A stretch of DNA of 52,358 nucleotides, the filler included, from Bipalium vagum (taxonomy: Eukaryota), in assembly GCA_037834085.1 (NCBI GenBank). It is 3 parts of 3 records of this genome, joined end to end, with 100 filler letters (N's around TTAATTAATTAA, not from the genome) between each part and the next. Parts side by side here need not be neighbours in the genome. Positions count along the whole stretch, not along the records: positions 36,211 to 52,358 come from JBBMKC010124975.1; 2 more parts are not named here. One strand, written 5' to 3'. Shown here piece by piece: positions 1 to 52,358 of the stretch (its first letter is position 1; the number at the start of each line of letters is the position of its first letter). The translations under genes and the position numbers were made by a program. The notes beneath the pieces are model-generated. The model searched no databases. It saw nothing but the letters and a program-made list of their open reading frames with translations, and was not told where the DNA came from.

Positions 1-318
1 ATCGAAAACTAGAAATTATTTAAAAGTTAAAAGCCATACACCAATAGTGTTGCGAGCTAATGTCGTGTACCAATTTAAATATGACTATTAATATATTAAA
101 TAAATATAATTTTATACCAATAAAGATAATTTATCCTTATGATTATGTTCAAGGAGTAAACTTTAATGTTACCCAATTATTTTATTATGAACATCGTCGT
201 AACACTTAGCTTGCAAAGTTTACTGGCCCTTTCATTTTGTCAATACGTGTACGCAATGAATGAATCAAAGCAATTACGAACAACACTTTATTACTATAAT
301 AACAATAACAACGCAATG

Positions 319-36210: not shown

Positions 36211-36257
<47 letters not shown>

Positions 36258-36263
36258 TAAAAA

Positions 36264-36300
<37 letters not shown>
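36211..36300. repeat. (TTA)n microsatellite after the gap
   Basis: Direct reading. Confidence 0.95.
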
Positions 36301-36301
<1 letters not shown>

Positions 36302-37547
36302 TAAAATTTTATAGTCAAATATTAAATTTTTTAAGGTGTTATTTTAAATGGTGTCATTAAAAAATATTTCAATTAAAAAACTATCAAATAAAATTGTGAC
36401 AATAATTGGTAAGAGTAAATCACAAAAAATCTTCCGAAAATCTTTCGAAGTTTCCTAAGACTGTTATAAATTTTGGAAAAGGCTACTCGGCGCAAGTAAT
36501 AGATTCACATAAGTAAAAAAAGTATTTAAAAATTAATTATTGTCAGTACTAGAATATAATTTCCAGTTTCTTGAATTTTTCTCATTCTTCCTTTGTTATC
36601 TTTGGAGCATACCTTCTAGAGAACTAGTCGCTTCATTCAAATTATTCACTTCATAAACAATATTCTTAATTATTATTTTAAATTAATTAATTAATGGTTT
36701 TTAATTATTATCAATTATTTATTTTTTGTTATTTTCTTTATTAAACTAAATATTATAAAATCGGATTTGCAGTGTTTAGGCAAATTTTTATTTTTTTAAT
36801 ATAATTTCTATCAGTAATTATATACTTATAAATAAAAATAAAGCCATAGAAATGAAAAGGATGAATATAAATATCCAAAGAAATCGGAAAACAATGATTA
36901 ATAAGGTAATTGAAGATTCAAAAATATTTTAGTGAGCTAAATAGTTAAAGGCATGGGAACAAGTAATAATTTCGTAACAGTAATTTTTCGTAAAGAATCC
37001 ACACTTTTCCGACAACCCCGTATATTACACTATAGTTTTAACTAAGCTGACCTATTTATTTGTTTTAACTAATTATTTTATTTTAAAAATATCTCAATCT
37101 TAAAATTTTATTTATTATTTCTTTTAATGGCTCTTCCCGAAACAATGAGAATTATTTTTCAAAAAATTGATCTTTAAGTATTTCCAAATATAAAATATTT
37201 CAAAATTCTTTTAAATTAAAGTAATATTAAAAAACATTAAATCCTACAGACATTTAAATGACAATAAATTTTCGTTTAATTAATTAAAAATTAAGAGAAA
37301 ATGTCAAAATTGAATAATACTTCTTTTTCCTCAGACATCACTAAGTAGATTAGAAATACTGTTCTATTCAGTTCAATAATTTGGAATGGGTCCTGAAATT
37401 AATAAAATTAATAAATAAAAATTATTCTTTTTAGTGTGAAATTACTTAAGCTAATCAGAAATATATGAATTTATATGATGTAGATTAAAATTTATTTTTA
37501 AAGACAATTATTGTTCTCATATTTAAAATATTTAAATTGGTATAATA

Positions 37548-38822
37548 CTAGGTTGGCCGTACAGTTCCTGCCCTACTTAAGAAAGAACAATGAAATCAAA
37601 CAACGTAATCAACAGGCATTTATTTTAATCAAAATAATACCCTTATGGATAAATACAACGATACAAGCGATTTTCAATTTTTTATGCCTTCTAAAAAGAC
37701 GTTGAAGGAAATCCTCCAAAATACTATTTTGTTTCCTATTTCACTTCCTCATTTAAATTGAATCTCTTGCCGGAAAAAAATCTTTTGAAATTAGGAAATA
37801 AAAATGTCACTGGGTCCCAAATCCGGATGTTTAGATATCAATCCAAAGCATAATTCGTTTAATTTTGCTAGACTAAGAATTGGTTTTAAGAGGATTCATT
37901 GTTAGGATGAAACAGCAAATTTTTCTTCATCAAATGGGGTCGACTTCTCTTGAGTTCATCCTTCAAACAATCAAGCAGCGCTGCATAATAATAAGATCAT
38001 GTGATAGTTTTATCTTTCTCAAGATAGACTATGAGTAATATACCCTTGGCATCCCAGAAAATCGTAGCCATAATCTTACCAGCCTTTGTTGAGTTTTTGG
38101 TCTCTTCGGCACACTTTCTCCAAGTAAAATCCATTGCTTCGATTGTTGAGTAGACTCTGTAGTGTAATAATGAATCGTTGATGTATTAACGCAAAATATC
38201 GTTTGAATTTTTTTAGAACAATGCCAAATTTCTCTCTAAATCATTAACATGTTGCTTCCTTTGATCAATGGTTAATGAGCACGACACCCATTTTTCAATA
38301 ACCTTTTCATGTGTAATTTTTCATGTATTGTACGCTATACACTATCCTTTAAAAGATCCTAACCTCATCAGTCCGTCTTATCTTCACTTTTTGATCTACC
38401 ATTATCATTTTCTGTATTAGTCTGGTATTTTGATCAGTTTTTTCCTTCCATTAGACGACCACTACGACATTCATCTATATTGCATGTGCGATCTCGTTTG
38501 AAATCTGAATATCAATTTTTAATAGTGGGATACAATAGTGCTGCTTGACCATAATGCTTATCCAAACTTTTTTTTGGTTTCCATTGCGTTTTTCCTTTTT
38601 ATAAAATAATTTTTCATTATTATCCTAATTTCGTATTTGTCCATTTTCAAAAATGCAGCTATTAAGAATATTTAATTTGACTGTATAAAACAAAATAGTA
38701 TATCGAAATCAATAAAATTTTATATTCATTAATTAAGAAGATTGTTCTTTAAAATAAGCATATAAATTTTTACTTATTCTTGTTATTGATTATCAAGGCT
38801 AGGAACTTTTCGGACGGTCTAG
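37548..38822 (-). mobile_element. Full-length degenerate mariner (1275 bp)
   Basis: TA|CTAGGTTGGCCG..AGTTCCT and AGGAACT..CGGACGGTCTAG|TA TIRs; MDKYEIRII, AGKIMATIFWDAKG, PDLGPSD motifs. Confidence 0.88.
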
Positions 38823-39241
38823 TATAATAAGATTATTAAATATTAAATGCCAGAAGAAAAAGCTTAGATTTAAATAATGAGTCACAAAATAATTATATTT
38901 ATATGAACTTTTCATCGGAATTAAATATACTGTTTATTATTATTATCATTATTATTATTATTATTATTATTAAATTTAATATGAAAATCTTCTTTTGATC
39001 TCAAAAAATCAAAATAAATCTTAGGTCATCAAAAATTAAATTCTGCGATTTCAATAATATAATAATAATTATATTATAATTATCAAAGTACAGGAATTTT
39101 CGAAAAACCAGATGTTACCCCTTAGACTCAAGATTGACTCAAGATAAGTTTTATAATATGTCAAGGGCTTATTACTTTATCTTGACGGGAAATATTTGAG
39201 TAAAAAGGAAATACTTATTTCTAGATTTTTCATAACTAACG

Positions 39242-39304
39242 CGTAAATTCATTAACTGATGAAGAATTTCTATTAAAGAATATTCGAAATATTTTGATCA
39301 TACG
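39242..39304 (+). ncRNA. Minimal type I hammerhead ribozyme (Penelope-like)
   Basis: Stem I ATTAA/TTGAT (extended by CGTA/TACG), core CTGATGA+A, stem II GAATTTCT-ATTAA-AGAA(T)ATTC, GAAA, palindromic stem III ATAT, NUH = AUU with predicted cleavage after 39293. Confidence 0.68.
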
Positions 39305-39899
39305 AGATAACTGTGTTTAATATCTTGTGATTAAAAGAACATTTTATTTGAAATTTTATTGCCACTTCCGACATTTTTAGTGACTACGAAAAGCAATTGT
39401 GAATTTAAAAATTATTACAGGTCCATTTATTTTGTTCAAGCCACACAACAGTATTATACTTGGGTTCCGATGGACTTGACTGCTGAAGAGTTATGCATAA
39501 AGGCTTTTCAAGTATTTCAACGACTCACTTTATTTCTCGTATCTCTAAGATGTTAGTAGTTATCTCATTTCTTTTTATATACTTTATTTTGAGTGATTAT
39601 GGTGATTTGACTTTATGGTATTTATTTATATGTGATATAAATTTTATATCTATAAATTTATATTATAAAGCTATATTCTAGAGCGATTTTATTGATTAGG
39701 TCGATTCTATATGTCTGTACTATTATTTGTATTGTGATTTTTGTTTCTTGATAAGGATACTTAATAAATAGAGAATTAGTGTTTAGTTTTATTTGGTTAT
39801 TTGAATATGATTTTCTACATATGAATCTCGATTCGAAAATTGACATCATTGGATGTTATTTTGCAAATTCAAATTTTCATTCAACTGAAATTAGGCAAA

Positions 39900-40503
39900 T
39901 CATGAGGAAAGGAAATTTAATCGAAAATTCATGAACCTCTTCGGCAGTAACCAAACTTATTCTGAAATTTAGAACAATTGGCAATGTATTCCATTGGAGG
40001 CTATTAAGTAAAACCGCTATTAAAGATGTATTGAATGATACTGATGGAAAACGTCCAGTCGAAGATTATCCATAGAAACTAATATTCCACCAACCTTGGA
40101 TTCAAAGAGTTTAGAAAGATGAGAAGTTGAAGCCATATTAAATACAACTGGTTCAGGAGTTAATTCATGACCTTTTCGTTCACCAGATCTGACACCATTT
40201 GATTATAGGTTTTGAGTTGAAGGCAAGGATTTTCCATTACAAAACACGAAAAAAATTATAGAAATGGAAAACCGAATAAAAGAAAAATGCTGTCGTTTTA
40301 TTCCCGAAGAGCTACAAACTGTAATATTGTTCTTCCAACGAAGAATGGAAGAATGCTATCCTCTCAAGGCAAGCATTTTAAGAATATATTATAGGAAAAT
40401 CTTTTGTATTCGACTTAGTAAATACATTATGTGTCATTAATAATATCAATTTTTGTCAATTTTATTCATCGTTTACTTTTTTCTTTGGTTTTGAAATAAC
40501 CTG
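39900..40503 (+). mobile_element. maT/DD37D-like transposon 3' relic
   Basis: PFRSPDLTPFDY motif; end ...GAAATAACCTG|TA. Confidence 0.65.
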
Positions 40504-40617
40504 TATATGAGATAAAATTCAACCAAAATTGAAAGGGTTTAGATTAGAATTTGATTGAAAGATGAATATTTAAAAATATTACTTTATTTTTTTTATTTAA
40601 TATTTTATTGTAATTTA

Positions 40618-41568
40618 CTTAGTAGGCTAAAAAGTACTTAGACTCTACCAGAAATAATGAATATATTTGAATAAATTTTACACATAAAATAACAATTGTG
40701 TACATGCATGAAATATATGATTTATTTAAAGATTCTAATTTTTGTTTCCACTAGGTATGATAAATTTTTAAAAATTTCAAAATGTAGAATTCCTAAGTGC
40801 TATCTGATTTTTACTACTGAATGGATCTACCAAGTAGGAAATTATTTATGAGCTGAAAGGGGAATAAGGTGACGAAGCCCCATGTAAGGCTACCAATTAT
40901 AAATGAATTTTTCATCTAACCGTACAAATGTTTATAAAACATTCAAAAATGGAAGACCTGTCGAAATTATTACAAAATTGAAAGAAATTTTAACGTATTT
41001 ATAACAAAAATGAAAATATTTATATTACTAAAATGATTTTTATAGAATACCAAAAATTAAAAAATAGCTATGACGATAATATAAACGCTTTTTAATAATA
41101 TAAACTCCAATACTCTCTAGCATGTTCTGCAGAGTCTTCATGCTTAAATCAAGTTTAGTTGAACGCTCTCTCTGGATAATTTGCCTTTCTTCTTTGACCA
41201 TTATCTTCAATTTTTCTAACTTTTGTTCCCAAATTTCTCGAGGTCATCCACTTTTTTCTTCGTCAAAAAAACAGGAAAACTCTCTGATTCAATTGTATAC
41301 AGTAGCCTTGCATGGTGCTTCATTTCCATATGCTTCATCCAGTTGAGAAATAATCTCCTTCTTTTCTGTCTTCTTCAACAGCAAAAACAGTATGGCGCTT
41401 CGGAATTCAACTTGATGATATATTTTTTCAAAAAAGTCGTACCTTATCACTTAAAACCAATATAGTAATACTTACCTATATATTTCCTATAAAACTTACC
41501 TATATAAATTTCATGAAATTCTTAATTATATTTCTATGCGAGTCTAAGGACTTTTTATTCACACCAAG
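40618..41568. mobile_element. Two convergent mariner 5' halves with TIRs at the outer ends
   Basis: Matching TIRs (CTT.GT..TAAAAAGT.CTTAGACTC) at 40618 (+) and 41568 (-); both halves encode EF.SAI.FLLL...EII...G.EAPCKAT. Confidence 0.75.
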
Positions 41569-41959
41569 CACCATTCTTTGACATATTATGAGAACCAGGT
41601 TTGGTTTTAGCTATCAAAAATTTAGTATTGTTGTTTCTTATTTTCAATCTCTTTTAATTCATAGGCCATATCCGAAAACTGAATTCTAAAAATGTTATAT
41701 ATTTTGTTTTATTTAACTTCATTGCATTTCTCAAAATATTTGAACTTGTCATCAAAATAAAATGTGGAAAATACCACATTATGATAATAAAACCAAATAA
41801 TTTAAAATTCAAAGACCTCTTCATTCAATTTTTCCTCATAATAAAACAAATTAAACGGTTTTCGCTTGTTTATTTGTCATTTTTATAATTTAAACAAAAC
41901 GGACAAAAAATGAACAGTCAGGATAATATTCGAATTTTTTTATGAATAGTTCCGTTTTG

Positions 41960-42004
41960 ATTGGTTGACAAATTATTCGTTCAGGATTTTGTTTTGCATA
42001 AATA
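41960..42004 (+). promoter_or_regulatory. Candidate CCAAT (ATTGG) and TATA-like boxes of the LRR gene
   Basis: GATTGGTT at about 41960 and CATAAATA at 41997, just upstream of ATG 42043. Confidence 0.35.
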
Positions 42005-42042
42005 TTAATTAAACAGATTATTTTTATCTTCCTAAATTCCTT

Positions 42043-43017
42043 ATGATAACATTAAATACTTCGAAAATAATCATTCTTTACACTTCGGTTTTTTTTTCCG
42101 AAATAATTTTCGTTTTATGTGAAATTAGTTGTCCTAACATCAATTGCTACATTGTAAAATCAGACGATCAATTGGTTTTGGACTGTTGGTCCCAATCTAA
42201 TTCAACCACATCGGAAAGGTATCGCTTGATCAAGTGTCAATTTGACTCGGAAAGAAAAGCCGTTTTTCTCACTCCGTTATCTGCAAATGATAATCTTGTA
42301 GATCGAATTGCAACCGGAATCTTTAGGACAATTTTGAATTCAACTTCAGATATACAAGAGTTAGTTATCAATCACATCACGATCAAAAAACTGACCAGAT
42401 CGGATTTTACATATTTATCAAAGCTTAAAGTGTTAAATATAATGAATCCAGTCGAAATGGAAGAAGATAGCTTGATTGATGTTATTTATCCAGAATATTT
42501 TCAGATTTATATTTATTGCACCGGGGATCACCGGGAAAATTCAGGTATCTCAAAATTGCGAATCAACACAGAAAAATGGAGAATCATTATAAGAGGTTGT
42601 ATGTATACTCACCAGTGTACGTTCTATGGTTTCCCAAATGATTTGAAGATAATTAATGAGTTTTATCTAAATCTTCAGTGGAACAGCGAATTTGTGCAAT
42701 CTGAGAAAGTGATTAAAAGTAATTCGTGTCGAAAGCAAAATAAAAGTCGAGCATTAAGCACCAAGTCCAGTGTAAGCATGGGAAATACGCTTTCTAAAAT
42801 TAACAAAATTCTGAATATCAGTTTAAACAGTTTAAAATTAGAAAGAAACAAAAATGAACAAATGGATAAAACTAATATGTTTATCATCTTTTCAGGTCTC
42901 TTAAGCTCGATTTTGATAATCTGTTTTGTTATCTTCGGCATTTGGGTGTTTCGTGAAAGGCAAAAAAGTAAACCTTATGGCGCTAAACATACAATTGTTC
43001 TTTACGAAGACCGTTAA
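42043..43017 (+). CDS. Intronless type I membrane protein with LRRNT-like Cys cap and 1-2 degenerate LRRs (324 aa)
   Basis: Hydrophobic leader; SCPNINC...LDC; IQELVINHITIKKLTRSDFTYLSKLKVLNI; TM MFIIFSGLLSSILIICFVIFGIWVF; basic stop-transfer and a 21-aa tail. Confidence 0.8.
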   Translation: MITLNTSKIIILYTSVFFSEIIFVLCEISCPNINCYIVKSDDQLVLDCWSQSNSTTSERYRLIKCQFDSERKAVFLTPLSANDNLVDRIATGIFRTILNSTSDIQELVINHITIKKLTRSDFTYLSKLKVLNIMNPVEMEEDSLIDVIYPEYFQIYIYCTGDHRENSGISKLRINTEKWRIIIRGCMYTHQCTFYGFPNDLKIINEFYLNLQWNSEFVQSEKVIKSNSCRKQNKSRALSTKSSVSMGNTLSKINKILNISLNSLKLERNKNEQMDKTNMFIIFSGLLSSILIICFVIFGIWVFRERQKSKPYGAKHTIVLYEDR

Positions 43018-43242
43018 TTTATAGATTGACTGTTATTTTATTTGTCTCAAGTGTAGATAGCATCATTATTTTATTCAGTTGACATTTAAAAATGACTTAT
43101 TGGTATGAAATATAAATTATTATTATTATCATTATTATTGTTTTAATTTTAATTAATTAATTAATATTTAATTATTGGTCTATTTAATCGTTTTTTAATC
43201 GTTTGTTAAGTAAAAATATATGGAGAATTAGTGAAAATTAAT

Positions 43243-43310
43243 TGGAGATACTGGAATTCGAATCCAGGACCTTTCACATGCGCATGGACTGCTCTGACCC
43301 CAGAGTGAAA
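43243..43310 (-). pseudogene. tRNA-Ala-derived pseudogene or SINE head
   Basis: Minus strand ...GCGCATGTGAAAGGTC-CTGGA-TTCGAAT-TCCAG-TATCTCCA has an intact T arm and an Ala-type 3' end; the acceptor 5' strand and anticodon stem are broken. Confidence 0.7.
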
Positions 43311-46162
43311 TCATTTTTCGACAATATTTTTAATATTCATTATTAAAGATTTTATATTTTGATATTTTCACAATGATTAAAAAATATAATAAAAGATTTG
43401 TTTTTAATATTCTGAAATTGTTGAAATTTATTTTTCAGGATGATGTTTAGCCTTGCGAACTAAAATTAATGCAGCCATTATCAGGTTACCAAGAATTTTT
43501 ATGTCTGTACTTGATGAAAACCATTATTATTTTAAATAAATTTACACAAAATTATCGGAAAAATTTATTTAAAAATTGAATTATAATTAAAGAAATAAAT
43601 AAATTGTGGGAAAATAGATATCTGTTATCTATGTACCATCACTATTTAAATCTATCTGTCGATTTTTTAGATAAAAATAAAATAAATGAAGTTAAATTGT
43701 TGATCACATTTATCACTGATGACATATTTTTGTCAAAATGTATTGAATATTGCAGGTAATGATCTTAAGATTTGATAAGGGAAGCTTTGGTGAATTGTTA
43801 ACAAGGCTGATTCAGGAACCAATGTATAACATAAATAGATCAATTAACGTACCACTGTGCTAGAGTAAACATATTTTCATACCTTTAGTAAATATGAATC
43901 TTTTCTAACTGACATGAATATTATTACGAAATTATATGATTGTATGAATTTAAAAGTTCAGAGGTTTTATCTGTATTCGATGAAAACAATCTGGTCTTGT
44001 TTGAATAATTATGTTCTCTAAATTCCATTCTGCGCTATTCAAAAAAATATTCATTATTGCAAATTTTTTTTTCTAAGTCAAACCAGTATTATTTATTCAT
44101 ATAATTTATTTATTTATTAAATTTATATTTTTTTATTAATAATATAAATATTACACTTAATTAAATTATTATTATATTAGTACCCGCGATATCGAACAAT
44201 TTATTTTGTGAAATTGAAGAAATTCAATTAATTATTCATAAAAGTTTTACAATAAAATTTTTCTGATCGTAATTAGAAATAAATAGTTTATGATGATGAT
44301 GAAGAAGATGAAGAAGATGATATTATTGAAGGCTATTTGTGCATAATTCGATTAAGAAAAAAAAAGTTTTTTAGGAACAAACCTAGTGATACTTATCGAG
44401 CTGTTCTATCTAATTCATTTTTGGGAAATTTGGCTGATGAAATAAAATAAAAATCTTTTTGTTATCGGTAAATAACGAAAAATATAGTTAACATTTAGAA
44501 TCATGTTTATGTAACTTGAATGGAAAAAACTTAGATCTACTTCATTTGCGTTTCTGAAGATAATCACGAAATACGTCCTCACAAAAATGAATCCGATAAA
44601 TATGTTTGGTATTCTTTAGTTAAGACATTCATAGTGTTAAAGACCTTATCATTTTTCAAGTGAAGATCATCATTGCTAACTATGTTTAAATATCCACATA
44701 AAAAACCTAAGATTCAATATTCCGCTTCTTGTAATAAACATTTTGAAAAGCAACCCCGGGTCAAGAGTATCAATACAAACTGTTAGTTTGAGGAAGTAAA
44801 TTATAAACAAAAATTATGCATCTACCATATCCATTTAATTTAGAATATGTCGATTTTCCATGTTTTGAACATGTAACTCAAATGATAGAGTGAAGAATTT
44901 TTAACATACAAGAAATGATAAAATAACTGTCCAAGATTTTTAATTTTAATTTTAATTTGAAGGCCAAAATTTCTTGAAACTGTAATCTAAACACTGTTAA
45001 AGCTACGCGAGATTATTAAAGCTGGTGAAACTTATTTTGAATAAATATAAACGAATTTCGTAGCGAAATCAAATCGGACATGTTATAGTCACCAATCTAC
45101 TAATTAAATATTTTAAAATTTTATTAAATTAAAAAATATATTTATTTTTATTTATTTAATAAATAAATAATTCATTTTATGCTATATTATTGGGAAAATT
45201 TTGTTCAAGATATTAAATAAATATTTATAAATTTTATAAAAATTTTAAAGGTTTTTATACTTTGAACAGGGTCTTGAAAAATTGATTAAATGAACAAATA
45301 TCTGATAAATTTAAAAATATTATGAATTGGTTCAAAAATCAAATGATTAAATAGAATAAATATTTATTCTTGCACTTTAAAATATATCATAAACTATTGA
45401 ATCCGGTATGAGATGGATTAACATTGGTAATATAATAAACCCAGGCATGGCTGAGTGAAATGCTGAATTTCCTGTAAATTATTAATAATCACTTTAAATT
45501 ATGTATAGATTTTTAAATTAATGATTTTATTTATCAATATAAATGTGAATATATCATGTGATTATCAAAGGTTTGATAATTTAAATAAAATACATTTTAA
45601 TTTTAAAAGTGCTTTATATTTTATAAAAACATTTTTCTGTAAAAATAACCTTTCGAAGTATCACCTATGGATTATAAGAATACGATATAATCAATCTAGT
45701 TGAATAAGAGATTAAAACAAATTGAAGTCTTATAATGATTTCTGTATTCTTAACTTTTTAGCTCTTATACCAATGTTATTATATTGTATGTATTATTATA
45801 TTATAATGTATCTTCTTATACCAACACTGTTAGATCTTCAATAGGAAATCCTTCGGTATCAAGAATACTCTGTAAGAGATTTTCTCTAATTCAAGGTCAA
45901 TGACACATTCTCTGAAATGTGTTTAATTTAATTCGTAAGAAGATTTTCAAAATTAGATGTCCAATTTGATTATTTCTAAAGGAAATTAATATTATTGCCA
46001 CGAAACATACATATTGCCAGATTTATGTGAGAGAATTATTTTAACGATGAAAAGAACTGATTAATTTTATTGTATCTATTTATCATTAAAAGTTGTTTAA
46101 AAAGTATAAAATTAATGCACCGTCATATTATTTTGGCCGTTCCTTTTCCTAGGCATATTACA

Positions 46163-47462
46163 CAGGCCCCGTCAAAAGTCTGAGCCCACCTTCAAAAATT
46201 GAATTGATTTCATTTTTTATCCATTGGCATGACATTAATTTAGATGTATGTATTTATATAATTCTGACCTATATCAATTTATTGTTTTTTCATTAATATT
46301 ATATAATTATCAGTATTATTCTTGTCAAATAAATACTTTTGTTTAAATAATGACTGAACTATATGCTAAAAAAGGGCTAAAATTTTGATTTTTTCGCGTC
46401 GAAGGTTATTCGCAGAGACAAATTGCGACGAGAATGAATGTGTCAGGGGGAGCTGTTTGGCGTTCAATCCCTATATGACTTGGATAAATTATTCAAGTCC
46501 AAGCAACGATGTGAAAGGCCAAAAGTAACAACAGTTCAAACTGATAGATTGATTCATCGGTTGTCCTGTACTCGACCTTTTGCACCAACAAGTGAAATTA
46601 GATTACAACTTCCTCTAGATGCACCAGTAAGCATCGACGGCTTAGACACGATTTCTCGTTGCACTCCAGAAAACCTGCAATAAACCCGAGACTTTCTTTA
46701 AAAAAAGTTAAAGACCGTCTTCTCTTTTGTAACAAATATAAGAATTGGAAGCCCATAGATTGGCACATTTTTTCAGACGAATGTAAGATCCAGCAATTCT
46801 CTCCCAATGTTATACGCGTCTGGAGACCTGACGGCACAAGGTTTGACCCAAAATATACTGTCATGAATGTAAAACATTCTCCTTCGGTTATGGTCTGGTC
46901 ATCAATGTCATATGATGGTGTGGGTAATTTATGTTTTGTTCCTGCTGGTACAACTATTAGATCTACGGAGTACATTGACATATTAAGCCAACACCTACCA
47001 ATTGAAACTGGTAAAATCTTTTAGCATGATGAGGCCACTTATCATAAAGCTAAGGCCGTAAAAGAATTTATCTCTCTTCACAATATGGAGGTACTTTGTC
47101 CATGGCCTGGAAATTCCCCCGACCTCTCACCAATTGAAAACCGCTGGTCCGAATTGAAGAAAAAAGTCTCAAATCTCAATTCAACATCAATTAATGACCT
47201 AAAAATGAAAATTAATCAAGTGTGGAGAAATGATATCTCGCTTGACTATTGCAAACATTTAATTAAGTCAATGCCTAATCGTATTGCAGCAGTCATTAAA
47301 GCTAAAGAACAGATCACAAAATATTAAATTTGTTTAATAATGTTCATTCATAATAAATGTTGTACATAATATATACATTTTTTGGAATTAATACGTCTTT
47401 TCAAATGTACAATAGAAATTTACATTTTTTTGAAGATGGGCTCAGACTTTTGACGGGGACTT
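46163..47462 (+). mobile_element. Full-length degenerate Tc1 (DD34E-type), 1300 bp
   Basis: TIR CCCCGTCAAAAGTCTGAGCCCA.CTTCAAAAA at both ends; FSDECK, VKHSPSVMVW, WPGNSPDLSPIENRW; frameshifts and stops. Confidence 0.95.
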
Positions 47463-47479
47463 TAGATGATGATGTGATC

Positions 47480-48360
47480 CCCATTGAGGCTTAGTTCTAT
47501 GATGAGAGATAGCAGCTCTTCGATTTCATTAGTTGAAATTATTAATTAAACATCCAATTTCAATTTTTACAGCTTTGATCGATCGTTGGGTATCAAGATG
47601 TCCAATGACATTCTGTTCCTGGTTCATGTCAGGCCTCTGTTTACACATCCTTGACCATAGATAAATTAAAATCGACGTGGTTAGGTCTCCAATCTGGTGA
47701 AAATGTTAATGAATAATTATATAAATCATGTACCTTCTCTATCCGTAAAATCAGGTAGAGGCAAACTGAGTGATCATGAAACCGTGCTTTTTAAAAGAAA
47801 TTATGAACATTTATTTATGATATTGTGAATTATTTTTCTGAGCCTATGTTAGTTATCAAAGTACTCTGTTTTGACTAATCATAGTTCAGTGATGTATTTT
47901 ATTAATAAACAAAATTAATTAATATGTTCTCCATTGCTTATTTGATTTTATTAAAACATTTTGAATTTGGCTTCCACAAGCAGGTAATGATTTTATTTTT
48001 ATCGATGTTTTAAGTATCTCTTAATTCTTCTCTTGTGAAATTGGTCTCTGTAGACACTTGAATCATTATGATCATCAATCATTTTAAGAGTTTTTAGTAC
48101 CATCTTGTTGGTCTTTCTTGTCTTTCTCCAATAATTTTGTCATGAACAAAAATTTTAATTCGATTAGAATTACTTTTTTCTCCTTTCTAATCATAGTACT
48201 GTAGTCTACCACGTCTTCTAGGCGTCATGTAAAAAATTGAACTATTTCTATATCATGCCTTTCTTGCGTCAAACAAAAACAATATCTCTATAAAATCTAT
48301 ACGTCTTTCTTATTATTGTATAATGAGTAAACCCGTTGTTCGTGAGGTACATAAACATTC
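47480..48360 (-). mobile_element. Highly decayed Tc1/mariner-superfamily relic
   Basis: SPD...TTSDF-like trace near 47680 and PRRRGR linker near 48210. Confidence 0.35.
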
Positions 48361-48649
48361 TTGCTTGTATTCCCCTTTGACAGCATTTCAACAATTAAAT
48401 TAGAAAGGCTGACTCGAGTTTTCTTGTGTTCATTCAATTAGTTTACATAGCACTGTATAGATATTAGAAATGAAAATATGGGAATATTATTTTTAATTAA
48501 AAAAGAAAATTTTTTCCAAACTATATATAGGCACCTAAAATTTTGAGCAATGGTCTGCCGCTGTTTTCTTGAATTTTGACTCTTTTTAACTAATTTTTTC
48601 CATTTCAAAAATGTTTTTCGAAAGGCATTCTCTGCTTTTCATCTTCATT

Positions 48650-48652
<3 letters not shown>

Positions 48653-48682
<30 letters not shown>
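48653..48682. repeat. (AT)n microsatellite
   Basis: Direct reading. Confidence 0.95.
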
Positions 48683-48684
<2 letters not shown>

Positions 48685-49743
48685 CGACATCCTGATTGCT
48701 GAATCAGAAGCCCTGATCTACGAACATCCCTTACAGTCAATAATGCTTAAACGAAAGATGCCAGATCTGTTTTTTTAAAACATAAATGATTAATAAAAAT
48801 AAGACAAGCATAAATAAATATGACAAGTTGTTATTATTTAATAAAGTTTAACTGCTATTCTGCTTTAAATTATTTTGTGTATAGGGGGATACGTAGGGGG
48901 GACGTAGAGGACGACCCGGGGACCCATTGTCGCTCCGGGCGAGAATATTTTCGATTTTGTTGTTTTTTATTTTCATTTTAATCTTTAATCTTCAATCTAA
49001 ATTTCATTTAGATCATATTGTATTGAGTTTTTGCTTTGACATGAAGATTTTTATAGAGTTGATAAGAAATCCGTTTCAAACATTTGAACTATTTTGATTT
49101 AGTAACGAGTGCAAAAGGTGGTTTTGAAGAATTTAATAAAGTTTTATTGTGATTGTTTTAATTCAGTTTTTGGGTGCGAAAAATGTTTTATTATGGAGAT
49201 TTTGATTCAATTGAGGCAACTGTAAAAGTAAAGCGAACACATCATTAGAAAGTGATGGATCGTGCCTCTACAATACTAACAGTACAAAAATAGTTTTTAC
49301 ATTAAATTTTAGTCCCATGTACATATACTATACTTTTTAAATAATTCAATTAAAATTTAAGTAAACTTATACAAATAAAAGCTAAAATATATATTAATGT
49401 ACCTAGTAAATTAAAAAATCGAAAAATAAACATTTATTTTTCAATTTTTAGTTAGATTTTATATAATTATTCTAGAAAATTATCCGAGAATATCAGTTTG
49501 AAATTAATAAAATAAAGACAAAAAGTAATTAGTGATTTTAATTTTTTATTTTGTGATATAAATTGAATTACAAACGAAAATTTGATTTTAATTTTTGTAT
49601 TTTTATTACAGGAAAATTGTTTTAAATGTTGTTATAACAGAAACTTAATTTCTATGTTGATGTTTCACAATATTTATTTTCGTTGATTTATAAATATGTA
49701 ATTTAATTTAGAATTTCTTATAATTTCATAATCTATTTAGATA

Positions 49744-50238
49744 ATGCAAGTAAACAATTATCCACAATTACCTACCAGTATAAACGAAAATGTTAGACGT
49801 TGATTTTATGTTGTCTCACTGTAAAATAATGTTTAGGATAGAATAAATCGAATTCAAAATTGGATAAACAATTTATGGGAAACAGAATCAACATCATATG
49901 CACCTTCAGCTCCAGATTCTTCCGTATCCAATTTTTCTAACGTAATAAGATCCCATGTACAAGCATCAGATCAAATGTATGTGCAGCAAAACGATTTCGA
50001 TGATAATAACATCATCAAAACTTCCGATGGCATTAGTCGTCGGTTATTTACGGATAAGGAGATTCGACTGTTGGTCTTAATATTTAAAGAGTATTTTGAA
50101 AGTAATTCCACCCCAACATTGGCAGATGTTCGCCGAAAAATCAGCCGCACCATTCTCGAGATTAATCGAGGCGCAAATAGTGTCCGTTCAAAGTTTAAGC
50201 GCTTATTAACCGATAATCAGTGGACCAGTTATTTGTAA
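49744..50238 (+). CDS. Spliced 149-aa protein with C-terminal Myb/SANT-like HTH (exons 49744-49791, 49837-50238)
   Basis: 45-nt GT-AG phase-0 intron (49792-49836) joins the frames; RRLFTDKEIRLL...F...PTLADVRRKI...RGANSVRSKFKRL pattern. An acceptor at 49740 suggests a further upstream exon. Confidence 0.65.
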
Positions 50239-51491
50239 CGCAAGTTGGAATGTGTTTGGCATTTCCTTATTTCTTTAAGTCAATAGATTTCTGCGATCAT
50301 TGTTGAAACACGAACATTGTCAGATTTTCCTATCTTAGAAGTTATCACAAAATATCGATTATAATTTTGATTTTAAGTATGTCCTGAGATGATGCTTTTG
50401 AAAATTATTTTAAGATTTACTTTCCGTTTTGTTCGGAAATAGCTTGCCATTGTTTTCGTTAAATTCTTTGCGAAAGCCAATTTTTTTCAGTGTAACACTG
50501 TGCAATGTTGTTTGTTTTAACAAAACTATTCGCATTTTTATCCACATTGCTCCTTGTACCGTTGTGTGTTTGGAGATGAAATATTCTGCCTTATCTTTAG
50601 CGTGAAATTTCTGCTCATTTGGATGATTTTATTACTCTATCTAATCTGTGCTCTGCTCGCGGTTTCTGGTGTCCAATGTTGTGTTTGGCTGTTTGTTGAT
50701 TCTTCAGTGAAATGTTCAGCATTTAATTATTATTCCGTTTTAAAATAGCAGAAAAATCGAAAGGCTTGATATATTAAATAAACGGAATTATGCTTTATTA
50801 AAGTCAGATAAGTTTAAAGCTTTTTTGAACGTTTACTTGTCAAATTTTGTGAAATCAGTTTAAGTAGTTAACCAGGTTTACGTATGTTATGATATTGAAA
50901 GTTGGTCAATTGATTATTGTTGTTCTATGTTAAAACTTCCTTTCAAGCACAATATATCTGTATTCTAACTGAAATTTTTTATGGCCGAGTTGAAATCAGT
51001 AACATAATATTCTGAAGTTGTTCCCTTGTAAAATTTATATAAGAAATTAAATTGATCCATTTTAAATTATTCCAATGTTTATATTTTAAAATGATTTGTT
51101 TTTTATCCGAAATTTTTTTGGTTACATAATAATATTTTGTAGGTGACTAATTTGTTAAATTAATTAAATATTTAAAAGGTTTATTAATATTCTTATATTC
51201 TTGCACTTTTACGAAACTTATAATATGAAGGCTTCTGTGATGATTTGTAAGACTTCGTTTAGTTAAAATTTTTCAGACCGAAGTTTAATTAATTTGATTT
51301 CGTGTCTAAAATTGTGAAGCCAGCTGAAATAAAGTTTATTAATGTTTGATATTAAAATATCCATCGAGATATATATGTAATGTAAGAAGATTAAGTTTGT
51401 ATTAATATTAAATTATCAAATACAACCTAATATTATTCAAATAAATTTTTACAAACAAGATGATCAAATGTTAAGCGTTTAGGAATAACTC

Positions 51492-52285
51492 TGTCGTCAA
51501 AACAATACTTTTTACTAGAGATGACAGGTGGTGATTAGATGATACAATAATAAGATCTTGAACTCAAACATTTTTTTACTATTATACCTTGACTTAGTAA
51601 CGTGTGCCCGTTTACTTGTAACTCCTCACTTTTATAAAATGTTGTGCCCGTTCCCTTTTCAACCTTATCTGAATCAAAACACCCGCAATAATACTGTATC
51701 CGCACCCTAAGAACTGAATCAAAACGTCTAAAATAAAACTTTATTGATAAAAAACAATCCCTAATATACTGGTCACCACGATAAGTCTCTAATAAGTCCA
51801 ACAACAGAAAATAAATAATAAAATAAAAAACCTACTATTAATGAGATAAGAGAGAAAGAGAAAATCACCAAGAGAAGTGTGGAAAGTATCACCAGAAATC
51901 GAAAATAAACGGTCTCACCAAGAGCGACAAGGGGTCTCCATCAAGGCCGTTTCCAAGCTCGCTAGGTCCCCTTGTGAAATTCTTCTGCGTTGTCATGTCT
52001 ACGGAAAGTTTGATATACCTGCGTCATCGTCCTAAATTCGTAGTCTCCGTAATCGTCCTGAATGCGTAGTTGTCCGTAATTTTTCTTGCATCGTCGTCCT
52101 GAATTCGTAGTCTCCGTAGTTTTCTGCTTTCTTAGCATTAGTGGCAAACTGATGGGATTAGCCGTCTCTTTATATAGTCGCAGGGATTGGCTACGATCAC
52201 CAATCCCTACCCTCCGAGATGGCTATCTCTATCAATAGCCTTTTATTACTTTCCCTGTCTCTACGACGAGATAGAAAGAACTACA
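51492..52285 (-). mobile_element. Solo-LTR-like segment 3
   Basis: Minus strand starts TGTAG; two palindromes then CTATATAAAG; internal ~24-bp repeats; 3' end either ...CCTGTCA (51522) or ...GACGACA (51492). No TSD found. Confidence 0.6.
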
Positions 52286-52358
52286 GTAGTGTTCGAATTA
52301 ATTGGGACAAAGATAAAATTCAAGAAAATCATTGATATATTGAAGTACATTACAGAAA

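Follow-up and report, generated by a model that had tools for sequence, protein, structure and literature searches.

A hammerhead-like motif within an old repeat copy of Bipalium vagum is most likely not a ribozyme

The window (the whole stretch of 52,358 nucleotides of Bipalium vagum DNA analysed here, filler included) carries at positions 39242-39304, on the plus strand, every element of a hammerhead ribozyme in the described order. The motif is most likely no ribozyme; at best it is a dead representative of a known type. From the sequence comparisons, it is probably a non-functional chance look-alike that would have arisen by decay of one copy of F1, an old non-coding repeat; this grading, like those given to the alternatives below, is a rough judgement that weighs priors and scores. 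The motif lies on contig C124975 (JBBMKC010124975.1), the third part of the window (36211-52358). The source assembly is fragmented and has 441 Mb, and the three window parts have a G+C content of 26-29%. The interval 39177-40090 was found in one DNA run with 0 other letters, this run being possibly the assembly's own sample.

Table 1. Elements of the hammerhead-like motif and of its host repeat (window coordinates).
Feature	Position	Strand	Basis or remark
First core box (C3-A9)	39256-39262	+	sequence
Extra A after A9	39263	+	sequence
Stem II, inner part	39264-39267/39282-39285	+	4 Watson-Crick pairs, with G10.1-C11.1
Stem II, outer part	39268-39271/39277-39280	+	4 Watson-Crick pairs, 5-nt loop
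Bulged T within stem II	39281	+	sequence
Stem II look-alike, whole	39264-39285	+	AU-rich; interior resembles the TATA-like stretch of F1
GAAA	39286-39289	+	sequence
4-nt palindrome A15.1-U-A-U16.1	39289-39292	+	sequence
U17	39293	+	any predicted cut would fall after 39293
Stem I	39251-39255/39294-39298	+	5 bp: 4 Watson-Crick and 1 G-U
Distal helix	39242-39245/39301-39304	+	4 bp
F1 copy	39040-39835	+	old, non-coding; ends approximate
F1 right-hand remnant	40504-40581	+	continues past the insertion
Insertion splitting the F1 copy	39836-40463		about 630 bases, 25-nt inverted ends
Mariner relic left of F1	37800-38825	-	PF01359; left end not mapped

The sequence-only reading had described the core elements, a bulged stem II, a stem I with one G-U pair and a distal helix, and all of them are present (Table 1). 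The anatomy is that of the minimal hammerheads (min-HHR) of Penelope-like elements: the core boxes CUGANGA and GAAA, U16.1 and an H at position 17 are in place, as are an extra base after A9, the G10.1-C11.1 pair and the palindromic 15.2-16.2 positions. As described in the text consulted of Cervera and De la Pena 2014 (PMC4209133), the natural min-HHRs have the same core order, extra base and G10.1-C11.1 pair, palindromic 15.2-16.2 positions, a stem I of 4-5 bp and a stem II of 7-8 bp, and they allow U17 (text and Fig. S3); the same U17 tail is seen in genuine Penelope hammerheads of the B. vagum genome. Stem III of the motif, a 4-nt palindrome, could form solely between two molecules. The descriptor given in that paper asks for a stem II of 3-7 bp and a loop of 3-10 nt, and the motif fails it, since with the bulge loop II counts as 14 nt against a maximum of 10; it passes solely when a bulge is allowed. 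Unlike the min-HHRs portrayed there, it has a bulged stem II, AU-rich stems, no family, no recognisable pLTR or ORF of its own, and a host repeat that lacks the core. The nearest parallel in the same source is the Drosophila virilis Penelope variant, which shares a mid-helix II bulge that escapes the descriptor and an AU palindrome, but is represented by 130 conserved pLTR copies and has a 2-nt insertion in helix III, whereas the motif is one copy with no recognisable element around it.

The host repeat is about 1 kb long and has a conserved palindrome with a TATA-like stretch after it, as well as a long 3' hairpin; the corresponding stretches of the window copy are at 39231-39262 and approximately 39435-39520. 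Searches with the DNA just upstream of the motif found 4 and then 20 similar places, and a pattern search for further copies and distant subfamilies gave 37 matches versus 4 in the control; the copy number is a lower bound. The F1 loci (L049-L074 and L146-L172), some of them flanked by TAA microsatellites, share no common ORF by eye and have no match in Rfam. A profile of 19 F1 copies, with the window excluded, aligns to 39123-39607, across the whole motif (E 4.6e-34), with its best block at 39171-39241 (88% identity to the majority), and the homology is colinear on both flanks. The distance between anchors is 268 in the window and 253-390 in the 7 copies that show both, so the motif adds no surplus length, and no displaced F1 segment, as a clean insertion would leave, was found 3' of it. 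Because of the flanks on both sides, the lack of surplus length and the lack of a displaced segment, F1 is the only family with a positional prior. The F1 tree is a star in which the window branch measures 0.27 versus a median of 0.26, and the window copy is thus as decayed as the others; in a tree with 4 mis-anchored rows it is placed among the main F1 set, with support 85/79 and not starred.

Two other features suspected in this repeat were discarded. A hidden exon at 39421-39512, presumably JAK-like in look, is the F1 3' hairpin block and has no Pfam match, and a second degenerate hammerhead near 39480 falls in the same block and has no GAAA. The insertion that splits the copy also has no Pfam match, and from its protein likeness we take it to be Tc1/mariner-like. 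Elsewhere on the contig there are a Tc1/Tc3-type transposase relic at 46602-47327 (+; PF13358, PF01498) and a further mariner relic at 41043-41450 (-) with a Mos1-type HTH, below cut-off. An open frame of 334 aa at 42013-43017 (+) is hydrophobic at its start and again in a stretch near the C-terminus; it has single-copy depth and no Pfam family above cut-off, and is probably a genuine gene for a membrane protein.

None of 34 other F1 copies has both core boxes in the register of the window. The first box occurs somewhere in 3 of them and is followed by GAAA in 2 (counted by eye in other registers, with one row mis-anchored), which indicates that the F1 family yields such boxes by decay. Among the 19 copies, the column of A13 reads A in 3 of 17 filled rows and that of A14 in 1 of 17. 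The columns of the first box (39256-39263) are in other copies the 3' arm of the palindrome, where 70.9% of cells are paired versus 22-42% when slid; covariation in this palindrome has no clear excess over shuffles except in one score (7/500). As the window copy lacks the symmetry of the palindrome, its state is probably derived. Ordinary neutral, AT-biased decay of one F1 copy probably produced the hammerhead-like letters: the palindrome arm would have become the first box through the loss of one base and a few C/G-to-A/T changes, "stem II" would derive from a weak hairpin at the TATA-like stretch, and further changes would have supplied GAAA and stem I.

The 63 bases themselves fit F1 unevenly. 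Their non-core letters match F1 better than core-fixed shuffles do (4/1000 and 2/1000 shuffles as good), and stem II with its loop was not equalled by any of 500. A pairwise-sum test of F1 homology is weak (36/1000), the 14 bases upstream are no better than chance (144/500), and in a local-alignment test with the core fixed F1 is not significant (316/2000). Under the F1 profile 39242-39304 scores 8.6 bits, a poor fit for a member, against 5.6-48 in 14 members of which one is lower, and 24 of 150 simulated F1 copies score as low as the motif. Identity to F1 is 0.40, tied for the lowest, compared with a median of 0.57, partly owing to a one-base register slip; it falls exactly at 39242, as at a junction.

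Such a junction is what would be expected if a dead scrap of an old Penelope pLTR had landed in F1 at about 39242 and F1 bases had later been lost, a possible origin to which we give less credence than to decay of F1. The scrap would once have aided dimer cutting of tandem transposon RNA and would now be inert. Its putative source would be related to F2, a genuine high-copy Penelope pLTR hammerhead family of this genome, with 806 candidates and an intact core in the majority; F2 occurs in loci L174-L185 and L204, and older decayed subfamilies exist. F2 lies at 1072-1425 and 1574 of L175, where a GIY-YIG ORF is directly upstream of the hammerhead; our first guess that F2 was a MITE was discarded because of the intact core and this ORF. 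Two inverted F2 copies are present in L009, and in another part of the window, 60 bases at 17-76 (+) match the start of the F2 GIY-YIG ORF (80% over 20 residues). Hammerheads are described as typical of pLTRs, with an insertion bias for microsatellites, in the portion consulted of PMC8557442, and the text of PMC4209133 has most min-HHRs as single truncated copies, as a lone scrap would be.

For these bases, direct scores favour F2. In the same local-alignment test F2 is significant (11/2000), forward scores of the 63 bases are 14-19 bits for F2 versus -6 to 10 for F1, and 39242-39365 has 21.1 bits for F2, with older F2-like copies included, versus 2.7 for F1. The motif reaches 19 bits under F2, above the 71 lower-scoring matches to the core pattern, whose maximum is 16.6, and just below the cloud of decayed F2 copies, which starts at 19.6. 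The upstream flank is weakly like F2 (7/150), and 39294-39365 is weakly like an old F2 tail (1/200 and 9/200 shuffles) and unlike F1 (64/200 and 73/200). Motif and F2 have in common the first box with the four letters that follow it, the letters on either side of GAAA and the weak likeness of the flanks. F2 differs in its 4-nt palindromic tail, its stem II of 5 bp and loop of 10 nt, and its 3-bp stem I, compared with the stems and 2-nt tail of the motif, which pairs better than F2 does, an improvement that decay would not favour. The F2 3' tail of 105-160 nt is not clearly present at the motif: of 13 old F2-like copies, 9 give it at least 11 bits, but it scores -3.6 here, and a profile search for it downstream gave no match. 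A Penelope origin also needs an insertion, the loss of an equivalent stretch of F1 and a likeness to F1 that is in register by chance, which none of the 500 shuffles of stem II attained. A distant relationship of F1 itself to F2 is not supported: one test gave 30/1000 shuffles and another 342/1000, with no profile match. The suggestion of the sequence-only reading that the motif is a pLTR remnant therefore keeps its footing in the anatomy, which copies the Penelope min-HHRs, and in the reality of such elements here, and is possible without being the preferred origin.

Other min-HHR-like sequences are present in the genome. Seven loci found through GIY-YIG (L187, L192, L193, L195, L198, L199 and L203) have a first box of the U3-A8 type and a stem II of 4-9 bp, while another locus found in this way, L197, has the standard first box. 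Further families are represented by L029, L076, L084, L089, L090, L098 and L100, by L017, L030, L079 and L103, and also by L020 and L083, mostly on contigs of 230-310 bases.

Likeness leaves the origin unsettled, since an unrelated family fits as well. This is F5 (L207, L209 and L213-L232), a transposase relic family that we take to be hAT/GTF2IRD2-like. Over 39242-39304 its majority sequence reaches 18-20 bits, more than any of the other three families tried. It follows that the best match in a whole genome can by chance show a likeness of 15-20 bits to a family chosen after the fact, and this, with the lack of any sister copy, tells against F2 too. F5 codons become the first hammerhead box by one G-to-A change (3 of 20 copies), which makes F5 a second source of look-alikes. 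It is unlikely that the motif is a short piece of other DNA captured in F1, such as an F5 relic, in which the first box would be codons and the rest would have decayed into a look-alike. A 21-base exact match in L209 and the first box followed by GAAA in 3 of 20 F5 copies are in line with a capture, but F5 was picked by a search with 24 bases that found 5 other places, none of them a sister, and whose reversed control also gave 2 matches; outside the bases searched with, F5 shows no significant likeness (11/100 and 53/100), and no other F5 sequence was seen nearby.

A core pattern has 111 matches in the genome versus 18 for the reversed control. In 100 of these 111, both stems have at least 4 bp in 2 only, the motif being one; 5 of the 100 pass the published descriptor, and 6 if it tolerates a bulge. 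Simulated single-strand DNA, 400 Mb from a model trained on the fetched loci, some of which contain hammerheads, gave 28 bulge-tolerant matches, 9 of them palindromic, with counts to be multiplied by about 2.2 for both strands of the B. vagum genome. Two palindromic matches had both stems of at least 4 bp, and one match had a stem I of at least 5 with a stem II of at least 7. No match combined palindrome, extra base and G-C closure, which speaks against a look-alike born of F1 decay. A stricter simulation of 100 Mb gave 0 matches with both stems of at least 4 bp. Look-alikes of the grade of the motif are thus expected at well under one to a few per genome, depending on the strictness of grading, and the motif is, genome-wide, not beyond the chance supply. 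We found no usable false-positive rate in the hammerhead literature.

The sequence-only reading had also proposed a retrozyme-like repeat that is possibly still active. A working hammerhead, retrozyme-like or host-adopted, with a cut after 39293 made in dimer form or with the aid of a protein, is very unlikely, even though the conserved core letters are all intact and the motif is one of the two pattern matches with well-paired stems. DNA and pattern searches of the genome gave its own locus alone, though common words are passed over in these searches and the assembly is in fragments; read depth across the motif is that of a single copy, and no tandem unit was found at the locus. The motif is the sole match in the window, where no second well-paired hammerhead was found, and no pairable partner was found on the contig. 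Consistent with the remark that no RT ORF is nearby, 25 ORFs from Penelope loci had no match on this contig. Non-LTR retrozymes, as defined in the part of bioRxiv 10.64898/2026.07.22.740005 consulted, also carry type I hammerheads in non-coding DNA, but they are tandem repeats in which two or more consecutive units contain a hammerhead, and no such unit was found at the motif. As a single copy it has no consensus family with covarying stems, and single copy and absence of conserved pairing are two observations that the same reading had itself set against a ribozyme. A search with Rfam gave no match at the motif, an uninformative result, since six other min-HHR loci of the genome are missed likewise. 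No RNA runs that contain the locus are listed.

Predicted folding also counts against activity. The fold of 39242-39304 is no better than that of shuffles (z 0.17) and has the core bases paired. Mean pair probability is 0.02 in stem I and 0.23 and 0.34 in the two parts of stem II, with 0.44 in the distal helix; the G10.1-C11.1 pair has 0.23 here, compared with 0.62-0.99 in six of seven comparison motifs and 0.0 in the seventh. As a dimer, the double hammerhead has -2.0 kcal/mol versus -21.4 for the best fold, a gap of 19 kcal/mol. Fold models take no account of tertiary contacts, and for the comparison motifs, too, they prefer other structures to the full hammerhead; these predictions therefore weigh against activity and are no proof of inactivity. 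Together with the absence of the core from other F1 copies, they leave little of the claim of activity. According to the text consulted of PMC4209133, even a natural min-HHR had no activity as a monomer and low activity as a dimer. Hammerhead cleavage sites follow the NUH rule, with GUC the best, in the section consulted of PMC2238771, and we found no cleavage rate for an AUU site in the hammerhead literature. Since no second copy was found with which the obligatory dimer could form, and other folds outcompete the AU-rich stems, the motif is predicted not to cleave RNA and to be a sequence that does nothing today. The two leading readings, decay of F1 and a dead Penelope scrap, both predict no cleavage. 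That a dimer-cleaving hammerhead was born de novo, in one copy, from the F1 palindrome arm and the TATA-like hairpin is highly improbable.

If the motif is a look-alike, as we think probable, it illustrates in detail that AT-rich repeats can give rise to convincing lone hammerhead motifs, and that a motif of this sort needs to be compared with paralogous copies of its host repeat as a control. A Penelope scrap would add another example to a group known since 2014. As it stands, the motif matters little; only measurable cleavage by a motif shown to come from a repeat that is not a ribozyme would matter, as it would, if true, represent a natural de novo origin of a ribozyme.
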